From Callorhinchus milii (Eukaryota), in assembly GCF_018977255.1 (NCBI RefSeq), contig NW_024704751.1, positions 16,244,001 through 16,308,000 on the forward strand: a DNA stretch of 64,000 bases, given 5' to 3'. This document shows, piece by piece, positions 23,201 to 55,036 of this stretch (position 1 is its first letter; each line of letters starts with the position of its first letter). The notes beneath the pieces are model-generated. The model had not been told where the DNA came from and ran no database searches. It saw only the letters and a list, made by a program, of their open reading frames with translations. A program made the position numbers and the translations under genes.

Positions 23201-26200
23201 GACTACAAGAACAGCAAGATAATGGAATGACTGGAACTAATATTGGAAACCATTCATCTAAAAGTTCAGAGTGAAATCTTCCCAAAGAACACAGTATCTT
23301 CCCCAAAACTTGCAGCAGGCTATTTCCACTGTGGCACTCTGTAGGTCATTGCTTACCATCTGCAGAGATAGGCGTCTGCACCATATTGCTCTGCTGGCTG
23401 GGGACAGGAGCCCTGGCGCTGCTGATCAGAAGGTCAAACTTTGTGCTGCGGCAGGTGTTGGTGCAAACCTTATCATGCTGATAAAAATCCAACTGACCAG
23501 AATCCATCATCTTCCTGTATGGGAAGCAGTCAGAAACAGTCACTTACACTGAGCCCCAGAAGACTCAACTCACCTCCAGAGAGTACTTTTGGTGACTACC
23601 TTATGCCACCCCCACTCCTTGCCCCACAACTTGCACCCTGATCAACACAATGTCTGGCATAATTAAGAAATAACAAAAGCTATTGAATTCTATTGTATGA
23701 AATTCGACCACAGTAAACTCCGGATAACTCGTCATTCTGAGGGAAAAGGACTCAGTGACAAGATATCCAATGGGACAAGTTAGCCATTGGTCCTCTGAGC
23801 TCAATCACCTCTACCACCAGCTCAGCAATGCTATTGGCTGGCACTCAGTCACACTCCTGGGAACCAGGATCAGCACAGGTCAGCAACACTGTTGGGACAG
23901 GAAGAGGAACAAAAACTGGCAAAATGCAGGGAATATATCTGGATAACACTAACCTTAACATTACACCTCCTATTCGGATTGCTCGTTTCCAGTCTTTGAG
24001 TGTGGATTTCCCCGCAAAGTGAACAAACTGTTTTGGGCTTATAAGATGATCATTAAACTGAAAAGAAAAACAGAGTAAAGAATTCCGTCATAATGGAGAA
24101 TACTGACAAGACTGACTTCACATACAAACATGAAAAAATGTCTTGTGTGTAATTAATGGCTATTCAGTCCCACAGAGTCTGTTCTGCCATTCTATAAGGC
24201 CATGGCTGATCTGTACCTCAACTTCAATTGCTCATCCTTGCCCCATATCCCTTGATACCCGTACCTACAAAAATCTACCTCAGCCTTGAAATTTTGAATG
24301 GATCCAGCATCCACAGCTGGCTATTGCAGTTTTAATTATTATTACGGTTTTAATTGTCATAATTATTACTGGTGATAAACTATCATTGCTGATAATTAGT
24401 ATCTCTCCTGGTAAGTGGCTGTTTGATAACTGGTAAACACCCCAACTTCGTGAAAGCAGTTGAGCCCAAAGCCATTTGCAGTAGCCATTACACCAGCCAG
24501 CAATGCCTCTGAATTTGCCACCTTAGGGATTTAGATATTTGAACAGCAGAATACTTTCAAAGTTGATTTTACTTGTATTTTAGGGACCAGTTCTGAGATG
24601 CAGCATTATTCAGGGTAGTTAATTAGAAGGCTCCCCAAGCTGCCTCTTGGATGCTGCATGTGTTTTATAAGTTTCAGGTATTTGTGTCTTAGCTGGAGCA
24701 AAATTGAATTTTTTTTTCTCCATTCTTAGATTATTAATGAAATATCACTCCTCCATTACAACCCAATTTAATAAAATAGACGTGGACAGTACAGTATTAA
24801 CAGATGGAATAGTTATGCATGGTTCATACCTTCACGCATTTTACATTAATTCCTGGGCAGACAAATTTCTTCCACAGCAGAATGGCTTTGCTTTCCCCAC
24901 AGGTAATAGGATAAGCAATTTCAACCTCCTCATTGTTGATATCTGGAATTAAAACTCAATAGTCGGTTTCTCTTTGCAAAGAAATTAAAGCTTTTGCAAT
25001 GAAGCAGCCTACATTATTTTTTAAAGTTATTTCTTCCTCACTGAATCCCATTACAGCATCAAGCTGTTTCATAAATCACAGCATTCATCATTGTGGCTTA
25101 AACCACCCATACTGACATCCAGCTGTTAATTACCCTATGGGTAAAGAAAAACTTCCTAATATCCATCCTAAATTCACCCTTCCCAACCTGAATCTGAATT
25201 CTTGTCTTGGTGAATTTGGAACTATTGGAACTATAAGCTGGAAGAGTCTGCTGATGCCCACAGACAAAAAATTGAGTGAGGCAAAGTTATTGTCCCCTTT
25301 CCAGACCCAGGCAACAGCGCAGGTTGGTGTCTCCAGCAGAGGAGAAACATACAAAAAAAAGCAGAAAATCAGGTGTAAAGGTAACAGCTAATAGTGTTTT
25401 CAATAGTCACACACATCCAATTTTTATACTTTATAAAATTATTTTGTATAAATACAGAAATACAAGAATCAACTTTAAATGCCGCCCCTTCATTCCCCCG
25501 TTGAAGTTTGGCAGCATTCTGCTTCAACGAGAAGGCTGCTAACTTTGATGGAGTGACTGTCTCGCAGGCGATCTAGTATGTTAAGTGTCAGAAGTGTCAG
25601 AGCTGTACCACAAGGACAAAGGGAGTCGTTGCCCAAAGTGCTGCAACCTTAAGGTCCCTCCAGCTCAGTAACCGTTCCAGCCATCGCTTCTCCTTTTTAA
25701 GCAGTTACCTGCTGGCATCTAGAGTCTGTTGACAGAGCATTATTAGTAAATGATAATAGCTTTAAACCGAGGCACAAGCCTACATCTCCTACGAATTTAG
25801 TTCTCTCCACCACCCTTTGTTGGATCAGTAACTCAGTAAACTTTGATCTCTCACCTTCCCCCTCTGCCATTTTCTGCAAAGTGTGAGTCCCCACAGACAC
25901 CACTGAAGCATTGCAGTTTGATTCTGATCCTTCTTCACACATGCTGTTGGAATAATTTGAAACCAAGGTTAGTGCAAAGGTGACACACAGCAATTTACAG
26001 TTATAAATCTCAATGACGTGTTTCCATATTCAACAATGAATCTTGTATATATATATGTATATTGTACCCTTCATGTGGGATAAAGTATTGGTGCACTTCA
26101 CAGTGGCAGGATTGCCCACTCTTCTTGGTAATCCATTCCAGGTGTTGATTGTCCTCTGTGTAATCAAATACTTCCTGGCGTCCGTCTTAAAATTGCCCCA

Positions 26201-27848
26201 CACAACCTCTTATACATCTGCCTTGACATATTTGAAAATATTGTTCTGGATGTACTTTCTCCATCAATTAGTATCTCATGCAACCCCAAATCTCCAATGA
26301 GACATCTTTAAAGACTGAAGATCCTAAGTCAGGCACAACTAGCCTTCAGCTCCCCTCTCGACTCTCTTCCCCCTCCTCGCTCCCTCCCTTCCCTCCCCTC
26401 ACCCTGACCATTTCCCCCCTCCTCGCTCCCTCCCTTCCCTCCCCTCACCCTGACCATTTCCCCCCTCCTCTCTCCCTCCCCTCACCCTGACCATTTCCCC
26501 ACTGCTCGGGTCATGACCCAACTGTGCAGCGCCTTGGGACGTCCTCCTGACGTGAAAGGCGCTTTATAAATGGAATCTTGTTGTTGTTGTTGTTGTTATA
26601 CCTTACAAAGAGCTGCCATCCCTCCTAATCCTCTCCACCATAATTAAACCTTAATTTCATTCTCCCTCATGTATGTTCCCTTATCACAGTCCCTCACATG
26701 TGCGTGTGTGAGGGGCTGCGCTGGTGAGCACACACATGAGTGCGCGTGCATGTGCAAATGCATGGTGGGGTGTGTGTGTGTATGGTGGTGTGTGTGTGTG
26801 TGGTGAGGAGGGTGAGTAGTGTCACGGTGTGTGTGTCAGGTGTCTGTGAGGGTGTGATGTATGAAGGTGTGTGTCATAATGTGTGCTGTGTGGGGGAGGG
26901 GGCTGTGTGAGAATTTGTGTCACAATGTGTGTGCGCGGCTGTAGGTGGGACTGTGTGAGGGTGTGTGTCAGCGTATGTATGAGGGTGTACATCACAGTGG
27001 ATGTATGAGGGTGTGTTGTATCAGTGTGAATGATGGTGTTGTGTGTGTGAGAGTGTATGTGGGGAGGGTCTGTGTCACAGTGGGTATGAGGGTGTGTGTG
27101 GGTGTATGTNNNNNNNNNNNNNNNNNNNNNNNNNNNNNNNNNNNNNNNNNNNNNNNNNNNNNNNNNNNNNNNNNNNNNNNNNNNNNNNNNNNNNNNNNNN
27201 NNNNNNNNNNNNNNNNNNNNNNNNNNNNNNNNNNNNNNNNNNNNNNNNNNNNNNNNNNNNNNNNNNNNNNNNNNNNNNNNNNNNNNNNNNNNNNNNNNNN
27301 NNNNNNNNNNNNNNNNNNNNNNNNNNNNNNNNNNNNNNNNNNNNNNNNNNNNNNNNNNNNNNNNNNNNNNNNNNNNNNNNNNNNNNNNNNNNNNNNNNNN
27401 NNNNNNNNNNNNNNNNNNNNNNNNNNNNNNNNNNNNNNNNNNNNNNNNNNNNNNNNNNNNNNNNNNNNNNNNNNNNNNNNNNNNNNNNNNNNNNNNNNNN
27501 NNNNNNNNNNNNNNNNNNNNNNNNNNNNNNNNNNNNNNNNNNNNNNNNNNNNNNNNNNNNNNNNNNNNNNNNNNNNNNNNNNNNNNNNNNNNNNNNNNNN
27601 NNNNNNNNNNNNNNNNNNNNNNNNNNNNNNNNNNNNNNNNNNNNNNNNNNNNNNNNNNNNNNNNNNNNNNNNNNNNNNNNNNNNNNNNNNNNNNNNNNNN
27701 NNNNNNNNNNNNNNNNNNNNNNNNNNNNNNNNNNNNNNTGCACGGGCTGCAGTTGCAGGATGACCTGCGTTTTCCCCGCCTCCGCGCTATCCGCCTCCAG
27801 GCTCGCGGTTTCGGCCGTTACGACCACCACCTCCCCGACGCTCGCCAT
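20287..27848 (-). CDS. GMEB1: Glucocorticoid modulatory element-binding protein 1 (SAND/KDWK domain)
   Basis: Exons: 27848-(27739, into the gap) MASVGEVVVV...KTQVILQLQPV; 25943-25855; 24942-24830 (EIAYPITCGESKAILLWKKFVCPGINVKCVK); 24057-23954 (AGKSTLKDWKRAIR); 23514-23357; 22580-22455; 21993-21856; 21626-21504; 21008-20287. Phases are consistent. SSARAPVP and KRPRLQRPAS are GMEB1-type motifs. Confidence 0.95.
26340..26597 (+). mobile_element. L2 LINE 3' end with internal tandem triplication (CCCTCACCCTGACCATTTCCCC...)
   Basis: Tail GCGCCTTGGGACGTCCTCCTGACGTGAAAGGCGC...(TTG)n, matching the 3' end of the 29257-29868 element. Confidence 0.8.
27110..27738. other. Assembly gap (629 N) next to a GT-rich low-complexity tract (26700-27109)
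   Basis: Run of N; removes the splice donor of the first GMEB1 coding exon. Confidence 1.
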
Positions 27849-31694: not shown

Positions 31695-34600
31695 ATGACT
31701 GAAAGAAGGCGGTCCTCAAGTGATGAGAGTCTTTATGATATCTTAGAAGTGAATAAGAAAGCCACAGTGGAAGAGATCAAAGCAGCGTACAGGTGAGACA
31801 GCAGCATATAATAATAATAATCCTTGCTTTTGATATAGCGCTTTTCACATCGGGAGGACGTCCCAAAGCGCTTCACAGAACACACTGTAAAGTGAATTGA
31901 CTGTATATTTGTGGGCGAACGCAGCAGCCAATTGCGCACAGCAATGTCCCACAAACAGTCGTAGATTGAAAATGACCAATTTATTATTGTTTTTGGTTTT
32001 TGGAGGGATTATTATTAGGCTCTGTGTGGAGTAAGGAAACTTGCCCAAGGTTTCGCCCTCTGCCTGAAATTGAACTCAGGTCTCTCGCTTGCAAAGCGAG
32101 TGCTCTAACCACTGAGCTACAGGACTCCACCATATATAGGAGGATATCTCATGTCAGTGAGCAATCGTGAATGTGGATTGAGCTCTTCCCTCGTAACGGA
32201 GAGCGGTCGCTCTGAAACTGGTGTTTGGCAAATACATCCAAGGCCTAACATTTCTTCAATGTCTTCAAACGCTACGCCATCTTGTTCAAAATCTCAGACT
32301 ACACAGAATCCTGCAATAATCTTCAGTTCAGTCTGAATTTGGAAGTTGGATTACAAATTAAGACTGAATTTAAGATTTTTCCATAATCCTCCATGAGTAA
32401 GTAAGTAGGAACCTGGTTGTTAGTCGATTGAAGGTTCACTTTCCGAGGGAGACAATCATTCAAAAAAAAATTGGTCACTCAAACCATGGCTGTTTGTGGG
32501 ACACTGTTGTGCGCAATTCACTGCCGTGTTTTGTCCCCCACATACAGTCAATTCACTTTACAATATATTCTGTGAAGCACTTTGAGACATCTCAATAACA
32601 TAATAAGGCGCCATATCAAAATCAAGGATGCAAAATGATATCAAGGGCTGAGACGTGTTTGAGGAATAAGCTATGAGCAATAATTAGATAAGCTGGAGCT
32701 CTTCAGTCTCGAGAGAAGACAACTCAGAGGCGATCATCTAAAGGTAAATAAAATTTTTAATGAGATTGAATAATTAAACCCACATCAATATTTTAGGATA
32801 CAACAAGATAGTAGAACAAGAGGACACAAGTTTAGAGCCGTAAAAAGCAATTTCAGGACACACCCCTGGAAGTTTTTGTGTACTCAGAGGGTAATTAAGC
32901 AATCCAGGACACTACCCCGCGTGAAGGGTGCTATAATAAATGCAAGTTGTTGTTGTTGTTGTTTAATGACTGGAACCCGTCAAGGGTGGTTGAGGCCAGG
33001 ATACTGGGATTCATTTAAAAAGCAGTTTGACCCTGTGATGGGAGGTCGGTAGCGTGGGTGTTCTGGAAGGGTGAGATCAGATGGGCCAAAGGGCCTTCTT
33101 CGTCCGAACCGATCTTGTGGAAATTATTGTTTTTTTGGGAGGTGAAATAATGTTGAGTAACTCTGAGGCTGGCTATTGCTCAGGAAGCTGGCACTGAAGT
33201 ACCACCCGGATAAGAATCGCAATGACCCAGCTGCAGCTGAGATGTTCAAGGAAATAAACAAATCGTACATCATCCTCTCGGACCATCGGAAGAGGAGCAT
33301 CTATGATTCATATGGTTCAGCGGGGCTGCAACTGGCCTCCATGTTAGGGCAAGAGGGAGAGAAAGTGCTATCAACGAAGACGAACTACTGCTTCAAGGTG
33401 AGTTGCCTCTGAGGACATGTTTCTCCTCATTTCCTCTCCCCATCCCCACCCCCACCCCTATTTCTCTCCTGAAACCACTGCCATGTGCTGGGGGGGAGAC
33501 AGTGAAATATTAAAGGTTACAATGGGATCACTGGGTAAACCACGACTTGCAGAATGACAAGACACCATATTCTGTGGGTGCCTCAGTGTCTCACCCGCTC
33601 TTGTGTCTCGCTCTCGAGACAGAGCAAAATACAGGTACTATTTTTAGTGTATCCTGTGAAACTCTGAGAAGACTCTGATCATGTTCTCGGACTTTGGGGG
33701 CATCAATCAGCCCACATCCTGTCCTCACCCCACATCTGCACAGGAATGTCCGCACAGGGCATTGCTGAATCCTACTCAGGAAAGTTGAAACAAGTGACTC
33801 AGCTGAGATCAGTGACTCAGACAGTGGTCCATTAGGGCAGTTACACAATGGGTTGTATATAATCACTAAGTACATTCATAGTTTGGTCAGTGACATGTTA
33901 ATGAGACTCAAAAGCAACAAGCAAGATTTTCCAGAAATAATTAATCTCTATGTTGAGTCAGTTTTAACCCTTGCTGTGATGTCCTGCAGTGTTTAGCCTA
34001 TTTCTGCTGTCTCATCACCTGCTGCTGTTGCTTTCTGTGTTGCTGTTTCTGCTGCGACAATAAGAAGGAATCTGATGTGATTAATGACTTTGACCGCCTT
34101 CCCCTGTACAAAGGTGAGCACCCCAGAGTAACAACAGTGACTGAGTAAGTCTGATATTCATTATACACTAGCATTCCCAGCACAGAGCAAGAGGGCTGGC
34201 TGCTGAAGGCACTGCACTTGGAATGAAACGTTACAACAACTACAACAAAATTACATTTAAAGAGCGCCTTTCGGAAAAATGTCGGGAGAATGTCCCAAAG
34301 CGCTGCTGCACACAAATCCCAACTGACCATCTTTCCTCTGGATATTAAAGATCCTGTGACGTTAGTCTTAAAGAGAAGGGAGGTTTTTCTGTTTGTCTAC
34401 AAAATACAGGTACTATTTTTAGTATATCCTGTGAAACTCTGAGAAGACTCTGATCATGTTCAAACCAAACAAAGTGCTTTACATAATAGGGATAGAGACA
34501 TAGAAAATCAAAACATAGAAACAGAAGAGGGTTATTCGGCCCCTTGTGCCTGTTCCACCATTTTATAAGATCATGGTTGATCTGTACCACAAGTCCAAGG

Positions 34601-36326
34601 ATAGTCTGCACCAAGGAGCCATAGGTCCCTTAGAGCCCGGAAAGAGGCATCAATAGCCACAATTGCCATTTACACAGCGACTCTCACATAAAACCTCTCA
34701 AAAGTTTTATAGAATGAGATTCATTCAAAATTCCAAATGTGACAGTGATTCTCCACCAGCAACTTTCCCTGCACACAACTACTCATCTAAATTTTAATCT
34801 ACGAGGAGAATGTAAACCAGGAGAAAGTGCTCTCTCCCCATTGTGTCTGTGCTGGTGTTTGCTCTCCCACTGGAGCTCTCTTCTCTGCTCCCATCCCTGA
34901 TCCCTCCCCATCGTGACTGTGCTGGTGCTCAACAACAATAACAACAACAACTTGGATTTATATAGTGTCAACCCTGGACAGCGTCTCACAGCAATAGATC
35001 CCGAGACCGAGCCATGGGGAGGGGGATGAAGGTGCCAAAAGCACGGTCAAAAACAAAGGTCTTCAGCAGAGACCTGAAAATAGGAAGGGAGGGAGCGAGG
35101 TGAAGGGAGTGAAGAAGGGAGTTCCAGAGCCTTGGGGCATAGTGGCTGAAAGGACGGCCGCCGAGGGTGGAGTGGAGGACTCAGGGGACGAGGAGGAGGC
35201 CAGATCCGGTGGAACGAAGGCAACGGGTACTGTTTTGAGGAGAGAGGAGGTCAGAGAGGTAGAGGGGTGCAGAGGAGTGCAGGGACTTGAATACAAGGAT
35301 GAGGATCTTGAAATCGATCCTCTCTGGGATAGGGAGCCAGTGCAGGCTGGCAAGGACTGGGGTGATCGGGGAGCTGACTTTTGTGAGGGTGAGAATGCGG
35401 GCGGCAGAGTTTTGAATGATTTGGATTTTATGGATGGTAGTGGATGGGAGACCGGCGAGGAGGGTGTTGGAGTAATCCAGCCGAGAGGTGACAAAGGCAT
35501 GGACCAGGGTTTCAGCGGCTTTTGGAGTGAGGTATTGGTGGAGACTGGCGATGCATCGGAAGTGGAAGAAAGCGGTGCTGGTGAGGGACCACATGTGGGG
35601 AGGAAGGATAATTGGGGGTTGAACCTGATGCCTCGGTTGCGTATGGGTTCAGAGAGTTTTAGGGGGAGGTCGGGTGTGTGGAGGAGGTGAGAGCTGTGAG
35701 ATTTTAGATGTTGACGAGAGCCAAAGAGTATGGCTTCCGTCTTGTCAACGTTCAGCTGAAGGAAATTTGCGCTCATCCAGCCCCTGAGATCTGATAGGCA
35801 GCTGACAGAACATCAGAGGACTGGGGGTTGCAAAGAGAGGTGGAAAAATAGAGTTGAGTGTCATTTGCATACATGTGGAAGTGTACCCCATGTCTGCGGA
35901 TGACATCCCCAAGAGGGAGTTTAGATCAGAAAGAGGAGGGGGCCAAGGATGGATCCTTGGGGTACCCCGCAGGTGGGAGAGGGAGGAGAAGCCATTTGTG
36001 CAAAGGTACGACTGGCAGTTTGTGAGGTAGGACTCGAACTAGGCGAGTGTGGTCCCATTGAGGTGGATGATGGAGGAAAGGCAGTGGAGGAAGTTATTCC
36101 TCCATTGGGGCTCTCCACTCAATTCTCTGCTGTTAACATTTAGGATTCTGTGAAGAGCGAACCCAGTGAATAATCTTTACTGTGGCCAGCACATTTTAAA
36201 AACTCTTTTATGTTTTTTTTTGCAGATGACCATTCTGAAAGCTCCAGCCAAAACAGCGAAGCCAAACTAACAAAGGAGATGCCTACAATGAAGATAGTTA
36301 ATGGGCAGAATGATCCAATTCACTAA
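31695..36326 (+). CDS. DNAJC5-family cysteine string protein-like co-chaperone (~178 aa)
   Basis: Exons 31695-31792 ([33 protein letters not shown]), 33184-33397 ([11 protein letters not shown]..., 214 nt), 33990-34113 ([23 protein letters not shown]...) and a putative last exon 36226-36326. The J-domain HPD motif and a cysteine string are present with DNAJC5-type intron phases. The last exon is lower confidence. Confidence 0.88.
31809..32128 (-). mobile_element. Full-length young tRNA-derived SINE, inserted ~16 nt after a DNAJC5-like splice donor
   Basis: Near-identical to the other young copies. Confidence 0.92.
32640..33118 (+). mobile_element. Decayed CR1 LINE 3' fragment, interrupted by an L2 tail (~32905-32962)
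   Basis: Degenerate ...[17 protein letters not shown]...RTRGHKFR... reading and CR1-like 3'UTR (GATGGGCCAAAGGGCCTTCTTC). Confidence 0.7.
34931..36110 (-). mobile_element. Degraded L2 LINE with reverse-transcriptase remnants
   Basis: [26 protein letters not shown] (YADD motif mutated), [32 protein letters not shown]; frameshifted. Confidence 0.92.
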
Positions 36327-37954
36327 TTAGATGGCTGAACCTATTCGCTACAATTTTTAAATTGCATCACTGCCTTTTCCCCAAACCCCAACTATTTTAA
36401 TTTCTCCAATTCTGCCCGCTCCTTTTCTTTCTTCCCTCCTCCCCCCTCCCCTAATTCCGAAGACACTGACTCGTGTTGGGGAATGGTATCACAGAGGCCC
36501 TCTAGTACCTCGCTCAAAGGCTCAACCTTCAGGAGTGATCATGGACGGAGAGAGTTCAGAGGGTCAGTGAACAGTAGGTGGGGGGGTCTCGCCCCGAGGA
36601 CAGGATCACTGAGGCTGCCTGTGTCCCCCACTCTACGGCAAGTGCAAAGGTAGTAACCAGTATGTGTAATATCTGTTTCAGTGTCATTGGATTTCTCTAA
36701 GTGATGTTTCCTAAGTGAATGTGAAACTAATCATTGTTAACGCTAATGTTTGCAACTGTTTAGTATACAACACGGAATGGAATAATAGACATGCTTTAAA
36801 ACCCAGAAATATCTTACTGTACTGAAATGGTTAATTATCTGATGTGTCAAAAGGTGTATATATGCACACTGTACTTTATAAATTCTTTATTTCAGAAAAT
36901 GTATTATGTGTGTTTCATACCATTAAAAGTCCCTCCATCAATACTAACCCAGTGACAAACAGTAAGAGTACATTGCATTTCTTCTAAACGGTGAGGGTGA
37001 TGTTATGATGGCAATGAGCTATAAAGTCTGAGAGTGAGTTCAAGAAAGTGAGTGAGGGAGGGAGTCAGTAAGGAAGCATCAATGCTGATCAAGATAGGAT
37101 CAGATCACTCTCTCAGGGTCACCCTCACCATGAAGAACCACACTTGGCTGTTGGTTGCTCTTGGACTTTAACCGAGTAGAACTGGGGAATGCTGGAAAAA
37201 CAAGATAATGGAGTCGCCAAAAAATGAGGACTCCCTCTTTAAATAGGCTGCTGGTATACTGTGACCGTCTCTTTAAATGGAATCCTATTATTTATACTTG
37301 GACAGTATCTTTAAATAGAATCCTAATACACTGGAGCTGTGCAATGTTTTATTTTGGTGAAGGTCTTGAATTTTGCTGACTTAAAGGGACCTTGCCTCAC
37401 AAGGCAAGGGGGTGCGGTGACCGAGGGCCGAGACACATTTTGACACCCACATGACATAATGACATTTGCACGATTGTTCTCAACGTGATTTGGACCATGG
37501 GCCGACTCAGAGAAGCAGTTTGCAGAATATTTGAACACCCTGTTTAAAAACATGTACTATACTTTTCTAGTCACCTTGGTGCTAATGAGATGAGTTAGTT
37601 CTGCAACCAGTTACCACTGTGACTGAGCAATCAATGCACACTCAGCAAGTTTAGAACACAAACATTTTTTAATACAAAGTCAATGTAAAAATATATGTGC
37701 AGCATGAAATAAACAATGTGAAAATGTCTCCTCAGCCTTTCTTGGTCACATGGCTGGAGTTGTTCTTACCTGATGGTGCAAGATCTGTTTCCCGGTCACT
37801 GCCTCTGTGGTCCCCACACTGGGCGTGTGTGTGTGTGTGTGTGTGCACAGTTCCATCTTGTACAATTTAAGATAAAATGGCTTATCAAGCTGAGACTGGG
37901 GGATATTTCAGCCTTTGCATGGTTTGAAGGAGGATGCAAACGTCCACTGTTGCA

Positions 37955-38237
37955 CTGAGCATTATTGTTGCTTAGTAGTTAGCGCGCTTGCCTCGTAAGC
38001 GAGTGGACTCAGGTTCGATTCCCGGGCCCTAGGCAAGTTTCCTTATTCCACCCACCTCCATTTACCTAGCAGCAAGTAGGAAACCGGTGGTTAGTCAATT
38101 GGTGGATTGCTTTCAGGCAATAATTCCTTTTAAAAAATTATAATTTGGTCACTCAATCCTCGACTGTCTGTGCGACACTGCAGTGCCCAATTTGCTGCTG
38201 CGATTTGCCCACAAAATACATAGTCAATCCACTTTAC
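37955..38237 (+). mobile_element. Older tRNA-headed SINE subfamily with an extra central segment, truncated by a young SINE
   Basis: B-box GGTTCGATTCC at 38012; central TTTACCTAGCAGCAAGTAGGAAACCGGTGGTTAGTC; body homologous to the young SINE. Confidence 0.75.
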
Positions 38238-38567
38238 AATAATAATAATAATAATAATCCTTGCATTTGATATAGCGCTTTTCACGTCGGGAGGACGTCC
38301 CAAAGCGCTTCACAGAACACACTGTAAAGTGAATTGACTGTATATTTGTGGGCGAACGCGGCAGCCAATTGCGCACAGCAATGTCCCACAAACAGTCGTA
38401 GATTGAAAATGACCAATTTTTTATTGTTTTTGGTTTTTTTTGGTGGGATTATTATTAGGCTCTGTGTGGAGTAAGGAAACTTGCCCAAGGTTTCGCCCTC
38501 TGCCTGGAATTGAACTCAGGTCTCTCGCTTGCAAAGCGAATGCTCTAACCACTGAGCTACAGGACTC
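38238..38567 (-). mobile_element. Full-length young tRNA-derived SINE
   Basis: Same family as 40812-41136. Confidence 0.92.
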
Positions 38568-38960
38568 AGTGCAGGGGAGGGAGAGGAGGGGAAAGAGGTG
38601 GGGAGGGGTGAGCAGGACTGAGTGAAAGTGCATCCGTGTCGTTTGTTGGAGTGACAGTCACCACATGGCACAGCTGCAGAGCCATTCATTCCGGGGACAC
38701 CAGACTGTATCACATCACGGCCATTTCTGTTTGTGACCCGAGCGCTCCTGATTATTCAGCGGTTTTTAATCTGCCCTTATGTTGAGCCGTCACTTTCTCT
38801 CACCTCTGGATTTAGGTCCCAGATTTCACAGCGTCCAAAATAATCCCGGCCTCATTCAGGTGCTGAAATGTTTCATATACAGTACTGCAGTAGAGTGTGT
38901 CCCAGTTAATGGCCGTGCCCTCACCAAGTGCTGTTGAGTTTGACAACTCACCCACTGTGT

Positions 38961-38992
<32 letters not shown>

Positions 38993-39185
38993 GCACGGGT
39001 GACTGGTGCAGGTTAGCTGCTGCATTTGCCTCCACAACAACGTCTGAAATTAAAACAGAGCTTATTACTTATTTCCAGATCATCAGTTTCGCCCACAAAT
39101 ATACAGTCAATTCACTTCATAGTATATTCTGTGAAGCGCTTTGAGACATCTAGAAGACATGAAAAGCCCTATATCAAATGCAAGG

Positions 39186-39218
<33 letters not shown>

Positions 39219-40811
39219 TCCCTCCCCTCCACCCTCCCCCACCCCTCCAATCTCACATTAACTGACCATCGTTGTACAACTTCTTTCGGACAATGCTGTC
39301 AGTCTCCTGGCTCCTTAACAGGATATATCTGCAATAATAATGATCCTTGTATTTGAGACAGTGCCTTATCATGAATTCGAAACGTCTCAAAGTGCTTCAC
39401 AGAATAGACTGTAAAGTGAATTGACTGCCTATTTTGTGAGCCAAATGTGACAACCAATTGCTCACAGCAGTGTCCCATAAAGAGTTGTGAGTGATCAGAT
39501 TATTATTATTATTTTATGTCCAGAGCAGGTCCCAGGGCTGTCAGCGGCCACCTGCCAGCATGGTTTGTGCGAAGGAATATTTTCATCATATCTCAGTCGC
39601 TGCAGTCTGCAGAATGTTTCCCTGAGTTATTACCTTCCCTCACACTTCCACCAGCGGCTCTTAAATTAGCCCATGGTCTCAGTTACTGCCACAGCCGACA
39701 GCTGGCGTAATTCAACAAATCCAGCCCGGCTGTAAATACCCCAAACCTATCACATACCCTCTCCTCGTCCTGCTCCCCACTAGCTGTACAGTCACCACCG
39801 ATCGATCCTTGCACACTCACACACCCCTCAGACCCCCACTTCTCCCCTGCACTCATCCCCCTCCCAACCCCCTTGCACACTAATCCCCCCCCACTCTCTA
39901 CACACTCACACATACATGCTCCCTGCACATTCACACCCCCACCCACCCACGAGCTGCACACTCACACACATGCGCTCCCTGCACACACTCGCACGCCTTC
40001 AGGTCTACTTTAACCATGCTCCAACTCGGGGACCAGAGCCCTGAAAATCCAAACAGTCTTAGCCTGTCAGACCATTTTATCTTAAGATTCAAGATCACCC
40101 ACGATCCACTCTGCATTTCTTTAAATAAAGACCCTGTCCAGGTCAGCGACAGCTTGGTTTGGGACAGAGTAAAGCTCCCTCTTGGCACAGTCTGTCCAGC
40201 ACTCCCGTCCCAGGCCAGTGAGAACACAGGTTCACTGTGACAGACAGAGAACAGCAAGTGATATAGCCTGTTGATGTCCATTCACATCTCTGAACTCCCC
40301 CCCGCCCTCTCTTGTCATAACAACTGGTGTCCTGTTTACACATTGCTTGGAACTGGGGAGTAGATGGCGCGGGGGGGGTGGGGGGGGGGGTGGGGGGGGA
40401 GATGATCCAGAATATTGCATCTGAATGACAGTAGCCGTACAAACATATTTGAGCTGAGAGATGGGAAGCGAAACTGACAAAGGAAGTGAGTTGGCGGGAG
40501 GCGAGAGTGTAAGCCCAGTTCCTTAGGGAATATGACAGAACATTTTTTTATCGTGTAAAGAAGACTTGTGCCTTTTTTCAGTTGAGTTACTGCTGCTTGG
40601 CCCATCTCACCAGTCAGAGCGGCAACTGTTCTACCCCACGTAGAGCCTGGCTCTGACACCCCCTCTTCCACTGGAATAGAATTTACAACTTACAAGTTAC
40701 ATCTGTCACTGGAACAAAACAGGAAGAACTTTACTCTGTAAAGTTTACTCTTTACTCTGTGTGGATGGACAGGGTGGAGGCAGCTTTACTCTGTCTCTAA
40801 TGCATAATTGT

Positions 40812-41136
40812 GGAGTCCTGTAGCTCAGTGGTTAGAGCACTCGCTTTGCAAGTGAGAGACCTGAGTTCAATTCCAGGCAGAGGGCGAAACCTTGGGCAAG
40901 TTTTCTTACTCCACACACCTAATAATAATCCCTCCAAAACCAAAAACAATAATAAATTGGTCATTTTCAATCTACGACTGTTTGTGGGACATTGCTGTGC
41001 GCAATTGGCTGCCGCGTTCGCCCACAAATATACAGTCAATCACTTTACAGTGTGTTCTGTGAAGCGCTTTGGGACGTCCTCCCGACGTGAAAGCGCTATA
41101 TTAAATGCAAGGATTATTATTATTATTATTATTATA
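40812..41136 (+). mobile_element. Full-length young tRNA-derived SINE (reference copy)
   Basis: A-box TAGCTCAGTGG, anticodon-like loop TTTGCAA, B-box GAGTTCAATTC, body, L2-like tail and (TTA)n. Confidence 0.93.
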
Positions 41137-42469
41137 ATGTCACTGACTTGGGAGTGTAGATGGATAGTGGAGAGGAAGTTTACTCTGCCTCTAACCCATG
41201 CTGCCTCTAACCTGTTGTATAACGTATCTGGGCACTCAGAGAACTGGAAATCAACAAGCAATCACATGGTTTAACACAAGTTAATTTCAATCTACAATGG
41301 GGCGACATGAGTGATGTGGGTCAGCACGGCTCATCAAGTGACACCCACACGAGGATGAGCAGGTGATCGGGTTGCTGAGAGCCGCTCTGTCAACAAAGAA
41401 TAATTTAAAGGTCAGTTACGTCATTTTCAATTTTTCGAGTAACTCTTTGACATCATTCACACAAAAAATATCCATCCCAATGTATTTGCTCACTACAAAA
41501 TACAGCAAAACTATGATATTATCCCAAACTTTTAAAACAATTGATTTGTGATGGATTTATACATTATATAGTGCTTTTCATTGAGGGCATCTACAATTCC
41601 ATCTGCACATGTGTTTGCATACGGTTTTGCACATAATGCTCAAATCTCCTTCAAAGTTTTGAATTCCTTAATAAAAGTGTAGAATTCCTTCAAAAAAATA
41701 AAAACATTGGTCACTCAATCCTCGACTGTGTGTGGGACACTGCTGTGCGCAATTGGTTTTCACATTTCACCCACAATATATACAGTCAATTCACTTTACA
41801 GTATATTCTGTGAAGCGCTTTGAGACATCTAGAAGACTTGATGAGGTGCTATATCAAATGCAAAGATTATTATTATAATCAAAACATCTGCATGGTCTTT
41901 TCCAACAGTTAAACATGTTAAAGGATTGCACTTGAAAACATTTCTTCCAACCTCCCCAGTAATATCTCTGATGTTATGTTACAGATTCGCCAACTGGAGG
42001 GAATTGTTTTTCGCCTTCTATTCCCTGGAAATGTTTAGGATTTTCAAGCTCTCTGTTACATCCAGTCGTAAATTCCTGTGTTCTAGTGAAAACAGAGCCA
42101 CTTTTCACAAACCAGCTTTCTCATAAATACATTTTTTGCCTACAAAATACTCGGTAAACTCACTTTACACTATATTCTGTGAAGCGTTTTAAAACATCTC
42201 AATGACATGACAAGATTCTGTATCAAATGCAAGAATTATTATTATAACCTCATTCCAGGCATCAGCACCATCTGCATGGCACAAAATGGGGCGTATATAA
42301 CATGTAGGTTGTACAGTATATATACTTTATATAAAGCCTTTTTATGGACTCTCCTATATGTGCCTCAAACTTTAGAGATCAATGTGTTCTTTACATTAAT
42401 CAAAAATCTGGACTGTGATTTCCTTACCTAACACTGGTCATTTGATCTGGCTGTTGTCAATGACTGCCT

Positions 42470-42715
42470 CGGACACCGTGTTCTGGTTGAAGACGCCTCT
42501 GTTTACGTTGACAAAATGGGTCACTGGTTTGGAGATTGGTTATTATTATTAATTTGGTTCTTGGAAGGCTTGTATTTTGGTTTTGTTTTTTACCGTGTGA
42601 CTGTGTCCCAGGTCCGTGTGTTCCTGGTGTCACATTTCAGGTTACTAATATGGGGAGAGGTATGTCGGGAACGCCACATCCCACCCGGCACATGACCCGG
42701 GAACTCTTTATAAAA
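42470..42715 (+). promoter_or_regulatory. TRIM63 proximal promoter: GRE, FOXO site, M-box and TATA
   Basis: CGGACAccgTGTTCT at 42470-42484, TGTTTAC at 42500-42506, CACATGAC at 42689-42696, TATAAAA at 42709-42715. Confidence 0.7.
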
Positions 42716-42908
42716 GGAGAGCAGAGCCTCCTCTCTGCAGACATCGAACAGAACACAAGACCTTTTCTTATCGTCAGACGACTTTGACTAACCTGCTCTA
42801 AAGGAGGGAAAAGGATTGGTTACATCGCGAAAAGCAGTCAATAGAGACCGACCGGAGAGAAGTTGAACAACTCACCAGGATCCCTGTCTGTCCCGTTTAT
42901 TCATTAAC

Positions 42909-45900
42909 ATGGATTTCCAGTCTGAGAGTATAATCCCGGAGGCCAGCACCATGGACACTCTGGAGAAGCAACTCATCTGCCCAATTTGTCTCGAAATGTT
43001 TGAAAAACCGGTGGTGATCCTGCCGTGCCAACACAACCTGTGCCGCAAATGTGCCAATGACATTTTCCAGGTCAGTGCCAGCAACGTTTAGATTTTTTTG
43101 ATTGCAAGAAAATTTCTTCCTGTGAATTCACATTCTAATGACCTTGACATCAATACGGTTGTAAAATGTGAAATGGGAAAATGTGCTCGTTTTCGGATGC
43201 TTGCTGTTGAGTGGTTTGCGGTTGTGACCTTGGTTTTGGGGACTTCTGTCTAGATGTCTAGATGTAGAGGTGGGACTAATGTTGTTCTCTGTCTTGCTCT
43301 CCAGGCTGCCAACTCGTACTGGCAGTCGCGGAGCTCCTCCATATCGGGAGGAAGGTTCCGGTGCCCATCTTGTCGGCACGAGGTCATCCTGGATCGGCAC
43401 GGAGTGTATGGGCTGCAGCGGAATCTTCTGGTAGAAAACATCATCGACATCTACAAAGAGGAGTGCACCAGGTCAGCATCAGCTTGGTTACCATCCCTGT
43501 CCGTTTAGCAATAAGAATAATAACCCTTGCATTTGTTACAGCGCTTTATCACACCATTGAGACAAATCAAATCTCTTCACAGAATATACCGTAAAGCGGA
43601 TTGACTGTATATATCAAGGGAAACACCTTTCACTGTTGTGGGGGGGTGGGGGAGGTGGTGATGGGGGAGGAGGAGATCAGGCCAGATATGGGTTTGTCGC
43701 CTGTCGCTTGATGCATTATCCACACATTCCATTGCAATTTGATCACCGTGAAGGTCTGGCACATGCTTTACATAGACACTGTGCCCTTTTGAACACCCTT
43801 ACTGTAATGGGCACGGGCCCCAAACACAGCCAGGCGGACGGCAATGAGGTTTTCACTTGTGCCAACGCCAGATTAATGTCAGAGAAACTCAGGCTACATT
43901 TGTCACTAATTCCTCCTCAGATGAACACGATCTAACATAGCCCAGGGCAACCAAAAGCCAAGTGATCAACATTGATTTGATAAACAACAACAACAACAAA
44001 TTACACTAGTATAGCGCCTTTCAGTTGGAAAGACGTGAAAGTAGTGAACGTCAAAGAAAATTCAGATATATTTTATCACTCTGCAATTTTTGTTAAGATA
44101 AATATTTGATAGACTTTATACAAAATTTTACACATAATTTACTCCGAGATGCGCTGGAGGCAAATGTCTTCCTTTAAAACCTCACCAAAACAGCTTTTAT
44201 ACAGCGTCAGGGGAGCTGCCCAATGCCTGTTGAGATGTTCTCTAAACAGATTTGATGTGAAAATTATTTTGAAAAGTGTTTTTTTTGGGGGGTATCCTTC
44301 AGGCCCGTGAAGAAGAGGGGAAAGCAGCTGATGTGTGAGAAACACGAGGACGAGAAGATTAACATTTACTGTGTGACCTGCCAGACCCCCACCTGTTCCA
44401 TGTGCAAGGTCTTCGGGGCTCACAAGGATTGCGAGGTGGCCCCTTTGCAGAATGTATTTGAACGACAGAAGGTAAAGATCAGGCGGGCAGTGGGGGTGTG
44501 GGGGAGAGAGGGCAGGGAAGGTGGGTGGGGAGGGAGAGTGGGAGTAGGGAGGGGGTGAAGGGAGGGCTGAAGGAGGTGAGAATAACCTTCCTGCTGAAGC
44601 TGCTGATCTCTGGGCTAATTTTAGCCACTGGGCTGTAGCACGATAACAGCTGTGCTGCTGGCCTGGGCTCCAGTCAACAAAACTGGGGAAAACCATGTGA
44701 ACCATACCATCGCCATCTGCTCCAGTCTCCTGACCATGTGTAACTTCACACACAGGGACATCTGCCCTGAAGTGACAAAATACATTGATATTTATAGTGT
44801 TTACCAGGATAGAGCTGTTGTTAAAAGTCTGATATGAAGAAAATTGCCCTCGTGATTCAGTTGTTAAGATAAGGGTCCCGGCTGGCACTCAATGTCTCGG
44901 CTCGCACATGGGAGGAACAATTTGTGAAAGTTAACGTGTGATCAGCCATGTGACATGCATTTTCTTGCCTCCTGTCGGACAGGTGGAGCTGACCGATTGT
45001 ATCGCCATATTGGTGGCTGGAAACGACAGAGTCCAGTTGGTCATCAGCCAGTTAGAAGAGTCGTGCAAGTCCATCGAGGTAGGAACAACCGGCAGCCAGG
45101 AGAGAGCTGAGCCCAGCTCCCCAAATAGCCGCAGACACTCTCCACCCCCCCACTCCCTTCCCCTACACACATCACAGCTCAACTACACAACTCCTTATTA
45201 GTGGTGTGCACTCGTTCCTGCTTCTCCAGCTCTATTCCTGAACAGTGACACAACGCTGAAAGAAATTCCAGCATTTAGGAATATGCGGCCGCTCTATTTT
45301 TCCTCCTGAAGGTGGGAATGGCTACGGTCTGCATTTGGGGGTGCTCCACATTGAAGGCTTTTCTCCATGTTATTTTTCAGGAGAACAGCAAATACCAGAA
45401 ACAATCGCTTGCTGAACAGTTTGACACCCTCTACGCCATCCTGGAGCAAAAGAGGCAGGACCTGCTGCAAAGCATCACCAAAGAGCAAGAAGCCAAAGTC
45501 GACCATGTAAAGGGTCTGATCAGCCAATACAAGGCACACCTTGAGGGGTCCTCCAAACTGGTGGAAAATGCCATTCAATCCGTGGAGGAAGCAGGAGTGG
45601 CCACTTTCCTGATCGTAAGTCGTGCAAGACACATGCAAGAGCTGTTAGTCAAGTGTAACGTAAGCAACCACAACATATGTGTGTTACAAGAAGTAACACA
45701 CGGTGTGTTATTATACAGAGGACATCCCCGTCATAATGCAGTCACCTGGGTGCAATATTCCAGGACGCTGTGTTATAACGAAGTGGGGAAGCAATGGCCA
45801 ACTTCCTGGTCGCTTCTGACGAAACTTCCTGCATTTATGTCAGCGGTACTTCCTACACAAATCACAACAAGGGGCCACCTGGTTCTGCCTCCAGTGCTCT

Positions 45901-48055
45901 GGGGTTTGGTGCTGGGTGTGGTTTCCGGTGCAGACACCTACAGAGTTACTGATGTCAGGACAGGTCAGACGTGAAAAGCGCTGTATCAAATGCAAGGATT
46001 ATTGTTATTATTATTATTAAACCAGTAGCTGGAATTACAACAGTAGCTTTTGGTTTAACGTATGAAGCACCTTGTACACAACCGCTACGAAATCTCAAAA
46101 CATTCCCCTTTATACCCCAGGATCTTACTGCAGATTGCAAGGATATAAAGTGGCCAGTTACAGTCATTAATCCTGCAGTCAGGGAATCGATGCCAAGTAA
46201 CTGAGCTGCCACTCGTATCCCTGCGTATTGCACCGTGTTCACTGCCAGCCCGAGATTAAATCACTTCTTGGTGATGCATTGTCTTTCATGGTCATAAATC
46301 AACGCTTTAATCAAATTGTCCTTTTCTTTCACAGAATTCAAAGATGCTGATCAAAAAGTGAGTATCAACAGCAATTGGGTATCAATAAAGGGTTCAGACT
46401 GAATTGTGACTGTGGATTCCACCCCCCCCCCCACCCCCAGCATTATCAGCCCCTTGTTATGGTTTCAAGTGGGGGGGTGGCGGGGTGGCAGCCAGTTTGT
46501 TCAGATTGTGCAGTTTATTAACAAAAGTGGTGCAACAAGGAGATGAACAAGTTCCTGACACTGAAAGTGGTTCGGTGTTTAGGAATTGTATGGGGCAGAG
46601 GAGGGTCACTGCCTGAAACTCCCCCAACAGCTGGAGTTTAATGAATGAACTGCCTGCAGTCAACAACAACAACAAATTACACTTGTATAGCGGCTTTCAC
46701 GTCGAGAGGACGTCCCAAGGCGCTGGGAGATGGGACAGAGAGTGTGAGGGACAGAGAGTGTTAGAGATATGAAGTGTGAGGGACAGAGAGTGTGGGGACA
46801 GAGAGTGTGGGGACAGAGAGTGTGGGGACGGAGAGTGTGAGGGACAGAGAGTGTTAGAGATATGGAGTGTGAGGGACCAAGATGCCAACGCTTAGACAGT
46901 AAAAAGGGCTCTTCGCTGCCAGCAACGCAGGTGGTGGATCTGAGGGTTTATACATAAGCTGACCTGAAACACTTTCTTCACCTCTTTATTCAGGATGATG
47001 GAGGCATCTAAAGCTTCTCACATACAAAGAACGGAGGTGGGCTTTGAGAACATGGAGGAGTTCACAGTTAGTGTGGAGCAGGTAGAGGAGGTGCTGCAAA
47101 ATCTTCAGTTTGGATCAGGTATGTAGAGCGCACAGCCTGGAGCCTGGGTTTCAACTCAGTGACTCACAGAGATTGGATGTGTCCTCAGCCCACAGTGTAA
47201 AACTCTCCATTCAGTACACGTGGAGTTCGCTCAGTGTGACTAATTCAGGGATGGGAAGGTTAGCTTGCCCACAGTGGGAGACGATGATAATAAACCTTAT
47301 CATTTTAACCCTGATCTCACATCTCATCCAAAGGACGATATCTGTGACAATGCAGCTTCCTCTACACAGTCTCCCCCAGCCCCAAAGCCGCTCGCTAACA
47401 TCAGGAGGACGTCCCAAGGGGCTGGATAGTCAGGAATCTGCACCCAAGCTGGTGGTTGGGATTAGGAGGGGTGGAGGGCGGGGAGGGTAGGGGTGGGTGA
47501 TTAGTTGGTAGGAGGGTGCTAGAAGGCATAGAATATACTATAAAGTGAATTGACTATATTTTGTGGGCAAAAATAAGTACTCCTAAAGCCAGCTTAGGGA
47601 CACAGGATGAAAAAGCACATTAAATATTCCAGTAGCAAAAGTGAGTAACAGTTCTGAACATTTCAACTTTCAGATTATGATGATGAAGATGAAGAGTTGG
47701 AAGAAGAGATAAAGGAAGAGGCTGAAGAGGAGGAAATTCAAACTGATGGTGAGAGAGAGACCTATACAAATATATGTTCACAATGTATACAAAATATACA
47801 TTCACCCAGCACTACACACATGGATATATATGATATGTACACAGTATATTATACCTTCACCCACAAAATACAGTCAGTTCACTTTACAATACATTCTGCC
47901 AAGACGTCTCAACTTTGAAACATCTCAACAATGTGATAATGAGCTATATCAAATGCAAGGATTATTATTATACATACCCCCAACAGCGCACACACAGACT
48001 GACTCAGCCTAGTTACCTTGTTCTTCTCACAATGCCGCCTGCAGGCCAGCAATAA
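42909..48055 (+). CDS. TRIM63: E3 ubiquitin ligase TRIM63/MuRF1 (353 aa, 9 exons)
   Basis: Exons 42909-43070, 43305-43471, 44303-44471, 44983-45078, 45381-45614, 46335-46357, 46994-47118, 47674-47748 and 48045-48055. RING ([25 protein letters not shown]), MFC, B-box2, coiled coil and an acidic tail ending GQQ* are present. The short C-terminus and the EXTL1 neighbour favour TRIM63 over TRIM54/55. Confidence 0.93.
46731..46878. repeat. Minisatellite (GGGACAGAGAGTGTGR, ~16 bp) embedded in an L2 3' remnant
   Basis: Direct reading. Confidence 0.85.
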
Positions 48056-52682: not shown

Positions 52683-54000
52683 ACAGAATTTTTAATGTTT
52701 AATGTTTCACCTGAAGGATTGCACCTCTGACAATGCGGTGCTCTTCTCTTCCCCCCTCCTGTCACTGTGCTGGAATGTCGGCCTGGACAATGATCCTGAT
52801 GTGGGGCTTGAACCCACCACCACCTCATGAGTAGGAGGTGAGAGCGCGAGTGGCTGAGCCCAGGCTGACAGTGTTGTGTTTTGCAGGTTTCTGTGGCCTG
52901 TGATGGCCTCAATGCCGGGGGCTGGGGCCAGGCTGCCTGGGCTGCTCTCCCAGCCTCCACCCCCAGGGCACCCCTTGCAGCCCCTGCCCCCACCCCCACA
53001 GGGGGCCATGCGAGAGATCACCTGCGTTACGCTCTGCAATGTTGGCCAGGAGACCGTCCAGGATATTGTCTCCCGCACCATGGACGTCTTCCACATGCTT
53101 CGTGCTACTCAGGTGAGCCCCAGCCCCTTGCCGGCCCACCCCAAATGAGCCCTGCCCTCACACTGACAATTCCCTCCATTTCCCCCCTACAACACCCCCA
53201 CCTCCCCACCACACCCTTCATCTGGATGATTGGCTCTGAGCCTGTGAAGTGTGTGGGAAATAATTCTCATTAGAGAGAGCAGAAAATAACTTGTAATTAT
53301 ACGGCACCTTGTAAGTTACGTCAAAAGATCTCAAAGCATTTCATGGGTAATTGCTTCCAAGATCCAAGGGAACGAGATCTACCCACAGCTCTGGGGCTCG
53401 GGGCCATGGCGGGGCAGGGGCTGTAGTGGGGGGCTAGGGCGATGGCAGGGGAGGGGTTGCTGGAGAGGGCTGCAGTGCGGGAGGGGCTGCTGTTCCGGCT
53501 TCATCGCCTCCTGTTTCCCAGCAGCTGCCGAACGGTGTGACGCACAACCACGTGGTTTACCAGGAACGCTACAACAAGTTGCAGGAGCACCTGCGTCAGC
53601 TCACGCTCCTCTTCAAGAAACTGCGACTGCTGTACGACCGCTGCGGAGAGACATGTGCTGTCTCCGACGTGCCACCAACAGAGGTACGTATTGTACTGCT
53701 CAGTGATCTCCGGCCTCCATGTACCCTGCCCGGCCCGCCTCACCATCGGCAGTCAGGCCTTCTGCCTTTCTGGCCCCAACCTTTGGAACTCCATCCAACA
53801 TGCCTCCCTCCCTTACCTCCTACAAGGCAAGTCTCAAGAAGAACCTCTTCGACCACGCCTTCGCTCACCCCACAGAATTTTTAATGTTTAATGTTTCACC
53901 TGAAGGATTGCACCTCTGACAATGCGGTGCTCTTCTCTTCCCCCCTCCTGTCACTGTGCTGGAATGTCGGCCTGGACAATGATCCTGATGTGGGGCTTGA
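52683..54000 (+). repeat. Perfect 129-bp direct repeat (52683-52811 and 53872-54000)
   Basis: Base-by-base comparison found no mismatch. Confidence 0.93.
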
Positions 54001-55036
54001 CATCCCTCCTCATCCCAACCCTCAGTTTGAGTCCAAACCCTTGACTGTCCTGTGCCTTGGGACGTCCTCCTGATGCAAAAGATGCTTTGCTATTTTTATT
54101 TGTTTTTTGTTGTTGCATCAAACCTGTTGGGGGGTGGCGGGGAGCAGCCTATTTATCTAAATTCTCAATCTGATCCAAAATAGTTTTATTCACTGAAAAC
54201 TGGCAGTTGTCTGGTGCCAGGCTTGGTGCTAAGCTTCGAAGAACACTTCTCTCACACCCGTTTATTTCTGTGCAGTTAATCCCCTTCGTGGGAGAGGAGC
54301 CGGGGAGGCCGGAGAGGCAGAGTGCTGGTGGTTTGGGTAGTAAGGAATGCCAGGAGGTTCTGGGGGTGAGTAATAAAAATAATAATCCTTGCATTTGATA
54401 AAGCGCCTTATCACGTTTTCAAAACGTCTCAAAGTGCTTCACAGAATATATTGTAAAATTAAGTGACCGTATTTTGTCGGTGAAACGCGGCAGCCAATTG
54501 CGCACAGCAGTGTCCCACAAACAGTCATGGATTGAAGTGACCAATTTATTATTATTCATTATTATTAGCAGAGCAGAAAACGTTTCCGATCTTATTTCTA
54601 ACCAGTTAAGATTCTCCTTGTTTTGGACCCCTTCACTTAGAGGGAAGACTCCTCCACTAATCGATGTCTTTGTTGTATCAAACATCTCAATCAGATCAGA
54701 GAGTGAACGCATTCCATTCTGACAATCTATATCTGGAATTTTCATGGAATTCTCAGTTTGGTTTGGATACTTTTAAACATGGTGATGGGTTTCTGCATGT
54801 GTCAGACACCCACCCAGCTGACCCCCACCCCCCAAAAAAAAAAAATTCTCCAGCTTCGCCTCTTCGTGAGGGGCGAGGATCAGGGTGGTACCTGTACAGT
54901 GGAGCACTCACTCCCAAATCGCTATCCTCTGCTCCCCCAGAAGCTGCGTCAAAAGAACCAGGAATTGAAGCACATCACAGACCAACTGCGGAACCTGATC
55001 TGGGACATTAACTCTATGCTGGCAATGCGGAACTGA
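52903..55036 (+). CDS. Mediator subunit MED30-like protein (~184 aa, 4 coding exons)
   Basis: Exons 52903-53112 (...REITCVTLCNVGQETVQDIVSRTMDVFHMLRATQ), 53525-53683 (LPNGVTHN...; CAGCAG tandem acceptor), 54276-54365 and 54941-55036 (KLRQKNQELKHITDQLRNLIWDINSMLAMRN*). MED30 signature termini and exon layout. Confidence 0.92.
54372..54568 (-). mobile_element. SINE 3' fragment inserted directly after MED30-like coding exon 3
   Basis: Tail AATAATAATCCTTGCATTTGATA... and body on the minus strand. Confidence 0.85.

Follow-up and report, generated by a model that had tools for sequence, protein, structure and literature searches.

A probable fourth cysteine string protein ohnologue beside TRIM63 in Callorhinchus milii and other cartilaginous fishes

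In a stretch of 64,000 nucleotides (nt) from the chimaera Callorhinchus milii (contig NW_024704751.1, positions 16,244,001 to 16,308,000, forward strand; in the following the window) a gene for a protein of the cysteine string protein (CSP) type is located directly upstream of the MuRF gene TRIM63. We read this CSP-like gene as the fourth CSP ohnologue from the two early genome doublings of the vertebrates, which cartilaginous fishes have kept next to TRIM63 and bony vertebrates have apparently lost, and give this reading a probability of roughly 0.8. It is a spliced gene encoding a J-domain and a cysteine string, with orthologues in sharks and rays that are distinct from the DNAJC5G of these animals. 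That the TRIM63 locus harbours a fourth ohnologue had already been proposed in a preliminary description of this DNA and is now supported by the clade that the gene forms with its shark and ray relatives, by the separate DNAJC5G, by the name and the neighbours of TRIM63 and by spliced transcripts.

RefSeq already annotates the genes of this clade under generic 'DNAJC5-like' names, and what is new here is their reading as an ohnologue. In the accessible part of the open-licence literature we found no label of fourth CSP or ohnologue for these genes, although subscription papers, figures or further supplements could mention one. Vertebrates have three CSP genes according to reviews; a fourth one, if true, would mean that the jawed-vertebrate ancestor had the full quartet with each member beside a MuRF gene. 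It would also fix the pairing within the family as (alpha, beta) and (gamma, new), and the misleading RefSeq names '5-like', '5B-like' and '5G-like' would be corrected. As extra ohnologues kept in cartilaginous fishes are an expected pattern, the surprise is moderate.

The CSP-like gene, its relatives and its locus

The open frame of the CSP-like gene has 178 codons across four exons, all with GT-AG ends (Table 1), and 6,583 bp beyond its stop codon the MuRF gene begins on the same strand. This agrees with the preliminary description, which had named a spliced J-domain gene with an HPD loop, a string of 12 cysteines and an N-terminal RRRSS site upstream of TRIM63. The Pfam DnaJ profile matches residues 13–74 with 93.3 bits (cut-off 27.8), the HPD being encoded in exon 2, and the cysteines number 12 in exon 3 or 13 if the end of exon 2 is included. 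In the exon-2, profile and PDB comparisons the closest relatives are CSPs, and the best solved relatives are structures of DNAJC5 (CSP-alpha) with 2N04 as best match (101.7 bits). An ungapped alignment to 2N04 places Ser7 of the RRRSS stretch on the serine of the CSP-alpha RSLS motif, which we take to be the regulatory Ser10, and a serine is kept at this position in at least 90% of alignment A2. The 178-residue frame of exon 4 fits the elasmobranch tails better than the other two frames do (400 shuffles, p = 0.028), and an ancestral tail hidden in another frame of this exon was ruled out (p = 0.955 and 1.0 against shuffles). A second CSP copy was not found in the window by tblastn, in a search that also missed exon 3.

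Using the exon-2 protein as query we kept the best 120 of 1,264 matches, the top ten of which are all elasmobranch proteins named 'DNAJC5-like' with 62–69% identity. A clade profile built from nine of these ten added three further shark proteins, followed, apart from one bee model, mostly by proteins named DNAJC5 gamma (best 120 of 936 matches, down to 183 bits). With cluster members the clade comprises 21 named shark and ray species. The gene has therefore been retained, as described before, but across the cartilaginous fishes and not in one lineage. The window protein shares 48–58% identity with the single-copy clade members, 46–48% with DNAJC5G and 44–45% with DNAJC5B. No bony-vertebrate member was seen among these best 120 of 936 matches or among 150 representatives (down to 115 bits), of which 11 were named, about 30 were put in trees and the others were screened by eye on the linker. 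As a diverged member inside another 50% cluster would escape, loss of the gene in bony vertebrates appears likely but is not demonstrated.

Several candidates for a bony-vertebrate member could be dismissed: P0413 and P0322 fell outside the clade in trees, the group of P0305, P0312, P0359, P0401 and P0428 is mammal-type DNAJC5G (P0428 being the gorilla protein), and P0434 is a locust protein. P0413, a Logan protein of 179 amino acids (aa), is a very divergent Ala/Gly-rich CSP with an HPD and a broken-up cysteine string and stands outside the shark clade. Three sharks (Mustelus, Scyliorhinus canicula and Stegostoma; P0125/P0255, P0126 and P0127) carry a second, more diverged CSP copy on the same chromosome, and the consecutive accessions of the Mustelus copies suggest a tandem duplicate.

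The position next to TRIM63 connects the gene to a known fourfold region. According to the accessible part of the supplement of PMC9353778, reedfish has the neighbours dnajc5b–trim55 (chromosome 6), dnajc5–trim101 (chromosome 10) and dnajc5g–trim54 (chromosome 3), and a CSP-like gene by TRIM63 completes this quartet; trim63 occurs nowhere in the accessible text and supplements of that paper. TRIM genes are treated as a quartet of the opioid/CRH paralogon, with TRIM63 at human 1:26.05 Mb and on chicken 23 (PMC7406891, accessible sections), and this paralogon is described as a fourfold region resulting from two genome doublings (PMC7406891, PMC2865548, PMC8805411, accessible sections). In its MuRF quartet TRIM54/55/63/101 the CSP-like gene of the window adjoins the matching MuRF gene of the fourth block, whereas three CSP members are given in the paralogon literature and a CSP at TRIM63 is named in none of the searched texts or supplements, as far as these are accessible. 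We infer that an ancestral CSP–MuRF tandem was copied fourfold and that the TRIM63-side copy would be the sister of DNAJC5G. Read-through gene models from bichir (P0408) and catfish (P0421) fuse a CSP to a MuRF protein, which implies the same order and strand as in the window. In Heptranchias perlo the TRIM63-like (XP_067862996-7) and CSP-like (XP_067862998-3003) proteins have consecutive accessions and a contig of equal length, and their adjacency was deduced from this accession order. The clade member and DNAJC5G are located on chromosomes of different length in nine elasmobranch species (Hemitrygon, Hypanus, two Mobula, Narcine, Mustelus, Stegostoma and two Scyliorhinus).

The MuRF protein of the window equals letter for letter the NCBI entry 'TRIM63 [Callorhinchus milii]' and is 84% identical to the TRIM63-like protein of Heptranchias, compared to 72–73% for the MuRF parts of P0408 and P0421. 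The earlier assignment to TRIM63 and not to TRIM54, TRIM55 or TRIM101 is thus backed by the NCBI name and by neighbouring genes matching YTHDF2 and GMEB1, and is disputed by automatic names and a near tie in the B-box, which are weighed below.

Transcripts and predicted protein of the chimaera

Four sequencing runs were compared as contigs, which we call RNA-type, no listed run being on record as RNA. The only RNA-type contig made of all four exons is X1 record 1 (515 nt, depth 4.8). Its second and third junctions are 33397/33990 and 34113/36226, but at the first one 31792 is followed by 33188 and not by the in-frame 33184, in letter for letter agreement with the 31792|33188 joint. The frameshifted product has 35 residues, and as its stop lies 324 nt ahead of the last junction the transcript is a likely substrate for decay. 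X2 record 9 joins exons 3 and 4, and the listed X9 contigs read through exon–intron boundaries. Run X3 has no listed piece over the coding exons, which says nothing on expression; a further X3 piece, at 31340-31492, may represent either a 5' exon or DNA. The RefSeq model XP_042194799.1 ('5B-like', 118 aa, P0328) consists of exons 1, 2 and 4 without the cysteine string and is the only record with the in-frame junction 31792/33184. Each of the three in-frame junctions is therefore present in some record, and no single record has all three. Thus spliced contigs do exist, and of the junctions predicted in the preliminary description the second and third are found in X1 record 1 while the first is found in the RefSeq model only. 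The gene called intact-looking there does have four open exons with GT-AG ends, but its only four-exon contig uses a frameshifting acceptor.

The in-frame acceptor of exon 2 is pyrimidine-poor (0.60, the lowest of 11 in-frame acceptors scored). Contigs at a depth of about 5 drop variants, so that the in-frame form may be hidden and its absence is not demonstrated. The mammal-type DNAJC5G models P0428 and P0339 have extra residues at the first coding intron, the one with the shifted acceptor in the chimaera contig, hinting at a splice site of this intron that may be labile in the gamma-side lineage. Two single-base differences among the runs are located in exon 4, at window positions 36273 and 36278: X1 shows A>G, and G>A is found in both X2 and X9.

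It is possible, although we doubt it, that the ohnologue is real and its chimaera copy is decaying with little or no working membrane-bound protein, which would be compatible with the origin proposed above. Besides the frameshifted contig, the model without the cysteine exon and the poor acceptor, such a decay would explain that the chimaera protein has lost both the glycine after the cysteine string and the zDHHC17/13 docking motif [VIAP][VIT]xxQP, which is present in the tail of 19 of 20 elasmobranch orthologues. The end branch of the chimaera is also long, with 0.58 on the core compared to about 0.3 from root to tip in elasmobranchs. However, all exons are open and encode the HPD and 12 cysteines, the in-frame junctions do occur in the records, a complete in-frame form may be hidden at the given depth, and mammal-type DNAJC5G lacks the docking motif as well (0/5 with motif). 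As none of 15 relative-rate tests of the chimaera J-domain and linker against elasmobranchs was significant, long-term selection is likely and a recent relaxation possible.

The encoded protein is a predicted membrane-anchored Hsc70 co-chaperone. CSP-alpha is palmitoylated, membrane-bound and Hsc70-stimulating, and its linker has been tied to sorting (PMC12226341, accessible sections). By analogy, the HPD-containing J-domain would stimulate Hsc70, the palmitoylated cysteine string would tether the protein to secretory or endolysosomal membranes, and the N-terminal Ser7 is predicted to act as a kinase switch. The linker, conserved elsewhere from arthropods to mammals, is replaced throughout the clade and has gained cysteines at its end. 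As the review ties the linker to sorting, altered trafficking is a reasonable prediction for the clade, and the rewritten linker may lead to different partners or sorting. The docking motif in the tail has been described to bind zDHHC17/13 in CSP-alpha (PMC4571948, accessible sections), and its loss together with apparently loose splicing would likely leave little full-length membrane-bound protein in the chimaera. From the divergence of linker, string and C-terminus noted in the preliminary description, the odd linker turned out to be clade-wide and the odd tail to be special to the chimaera. CSP sorting and palmitoylation are of importance in adult neuronal ceroid lipofuscinosis, and a natural variant of a linker conserved from arthropods to mammals might help to dissect both.

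One could go further and speculate about a CSP-delta of the cartilaginous fishes with a rebuilt linker, extra cysteines and its own membrane compartment and clients, for which splicing in the chimaera would switch between tethered, soluble J-only (exon 3 skipped) and non-productive forms. The block, including the MED30-like gene as a second ohnologue otherwise lost, would then be a near-complete relic of an ancestral CSP–MuRF–MED30–EXT segment. As a whole we consider this scenario rather unlikely.

Phylogenetic placement and alternative origins

The careful tree has 35 rows, chosen after a quick tree of 71 rows and leaving out unnamed long rows, mammal-type DNAJC5G, the second shark copies, tunicate and echinoderms. 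It unites the window protein with seven elasmobranch rows (100/100), this clade with DNAJC5G (95/88), all DNAJC5G (91/90) and DNAJC5 with DNAJC5B (96/92). Nesting inside DNAJC5, DNAJC5B or DNAJC5G, considered in the preliminary description, was not observed in this tree, in which DNAJC5G is the only one of the three with shark rows; the gene belongs to a clade of its own and DNAJC5G is present separately in the same elasmobranch species. Without the window row the clade still groups with DNAJC5G (93/84), the latter being unresolved within, and a core-only tree with mammal-type DNAJC5G again shows the clade (98/99), in which the chimaera is sister to the elasmobranchs (87/87). The string span was counted from the exon-2 lysine to the glycine following the string; 20 of 20 clade members, the window protein and 20 of 22 DNAJC5G have a span of 22 residues. 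It is 26–27 residues in 13 of 13 DNAJC5/5B and in seven of eight invertebrates (one not parsed), with a span of 22 in 0/13 and 0/8. This span, shorter by four residues, agrees with the pairing with DNAJC5G.

The comparison with the three known CSPs points in the same direction. DNAJC5 (CSP-alpha) is alike in the order of J-domain, linker, cysteine string and tail, in its structure 2N04 and in the aligned N-terminal serine; it differs by the longer string span, a linker that is not rewritten, TRIM101 as its partner in reedfish (same accessible supplement) and the zDHHC17/13 motif that is missing from the chimaera tail. DNAJC5B (CSP-beta) shares the architecture and, in RefSeq, the name '5B-like' with the chimaera model, but differs by the low identity to the window protein, a 26-residue span and TRIM55 as partner (same supplement). 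DNAJC5G (CSP-gamma) is the sister in trees, shares the 22-residue span, adjoins a MuRF gene as well and has four coding exons, a number given for both human DNAJC5G and DNAJC5B (PMC12226341, accessible sections). It differs by its location on another chromosome in the nine elasmobranchs and by aromatic linker residues, which are kept in DNAJC5G and absent from the linker of the window gene.

Several observations weigh against a fourth ohnologue. The quick tree of 71 rows puts the clade (98) beside long invertebrate branches, the core-only tree has no deep resolution, and the stem of the clade is long (1.1 changes per column). In approximately unbiased (AU) tests a union of the clade with shark DNAJC5G was not rejected (p = 0.165, or p = 0.171 without the window row), nor was a union with DNAJC5B (p = 0.081). 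No shark DNAJC5 or DNAJC5B was among the retrieved proteins, and none is in any tree. The adjacency to TRIM63 was read in two species only (C. milii and Heptranchias), and the 178-aa protein, for which the clade profile would give 209.8 bits and thus more than the 183 bits at the end of the list, is not among the matches listed. For the MuRF gene, the B-box alone is nearly tied (35/44 against TRIM63, 33/44 against TRIM54), and automatic names in UniRef and ESM Atlas, the latter being family-level names only, call its protein TRIM54. The tree thus fits the ohnologue reading without proving it, and synteny carries the argument. In the free tree the clade would have split from DNAJC5G before sharks and bony fishes parted, a branching order to be read together with the AU values given above.

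These AU values would also fit an origin by duplication of DNAJC5G in the cartilaginous fish ancestor, followed by a move of the duplicate to this chromosome, on its own or together with a MuRF gene, and by rapid evolution. The span of 22 residues common to the clade and DNAJC5G, a long stem that could draw the clade to the base of DNAJC5G, the fast evolution also seen in mammal-type DNAJC5G, the automatic TRIM54 names and the local CSP duplication in three sharks can all be explained in this way. Nevertheless, we consider such a move improbable, as the duplicate would have had to land exactly upstream and on the same strand of the sole MuRF gene without a CSP partner, with four coding exons kept, and as the neighbours match YTHDF2 and GMEB1. 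In addition, the free tree, which unites shark and bony DNAJC5G without the clade (91/90), surpasses the tree constrained to the shark DNAJC5G union by about 5 log-likelihood units. Still less credible is a translocated and diverged shark orthologue of DNAJC5B or DNAJC5, to which the RefSeq name '5B-like' of the chimaera and two ray proteins, the tolerated DNAJC5B union and the lack of shark DNAJC5B or DNAJC5 among the retrieved proteins might point, because the DNAJC5 union is rejected (p = 0.026), the string spans differ and the clade groups with DNAJC5G in both trees with and without the window row.

Other genes of the window

Besides TRIM63, the other genes of the window (Table 1) seem to fit the TRIM63 quarter of the paralogon, judged by the matches to YTHDF2 and GMEB1. 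We take human GMEB1 and YTHDF2 to be located at 1p35-36 and EXTL1 also on 1p.

Table 1: Features of the window discussed in the text (positions in the window).
Feature	Position	Strand	Remarks
YTHDF gene, large exon, best match YTHDF2	11600..13255	-	same 133-aa span: YTHDF2 296.9 bits, YTHDF1 278.7, YTHDF3 277.1
GMEB gene, matches GMEB1	20290..27848	-	31 consecutive residues identical to GMEB1 in PDB 1OQJ; GMEB2 not among the matches, so no direct comparison
CSP-like coding exon 1	31695..31792	+	RRRSS kinase-type site and start of J-domain; covered by X1 record 1; present in RefSeq model P0328
Alternative acceptor AG, exon 2	33186..33187	+	4 nt past the in-frame acceptor; use leads to frameshift with stop at 33197
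CSP-like coding exon 2	33184..33397	+	HPD loop, remaining J-domain, diverged linker
CSP-like coding exon 3	33990..34113	+	cysteine string, 12 Cys; in X1 record 1 and X2 record 9; skipped in P0328
CSP-like coding exon 4	36226..36326	+	diverged tail without [VIAP][VIT]xxQP motif
CSP-like likely 3' untranslated region	36327..36927	+	ends near ATTAAA at 36922; RNA-type contigs extend to 36689 (X1), 36854 (X2), 36892 (X3)
TRIM63 (MuRF1)	42909..48055	+	9 coding exons, 353 aa; identical to XP_007893094.1
MED30-like gene, intact, 184 aa, four exons	52903..55036	+	between TRIM63 and EXT-type gene
EXT1/EXTL1-type gene, exon	57561..57731 (gene from 57561 upwards)	-	40/56 residues (71%) identical to human EXT1

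The MED30-like gene, in which just 29 of 51 exon-2 residues agree with mammalian MED30, may be another ohnologue that was kept; human MED30 adjoins EXT1 on chromosome 8. The EXT-type gene is probably an EXTL1-type paralogue. A six-frame scan with a short motif, which is a weak test, gave no CRH/urocortin-like remnant beside TRIM63. The GMEB1 gene is interrupted by an assembly gap of 629 N at 27110-27738, right after its first coding stretch.

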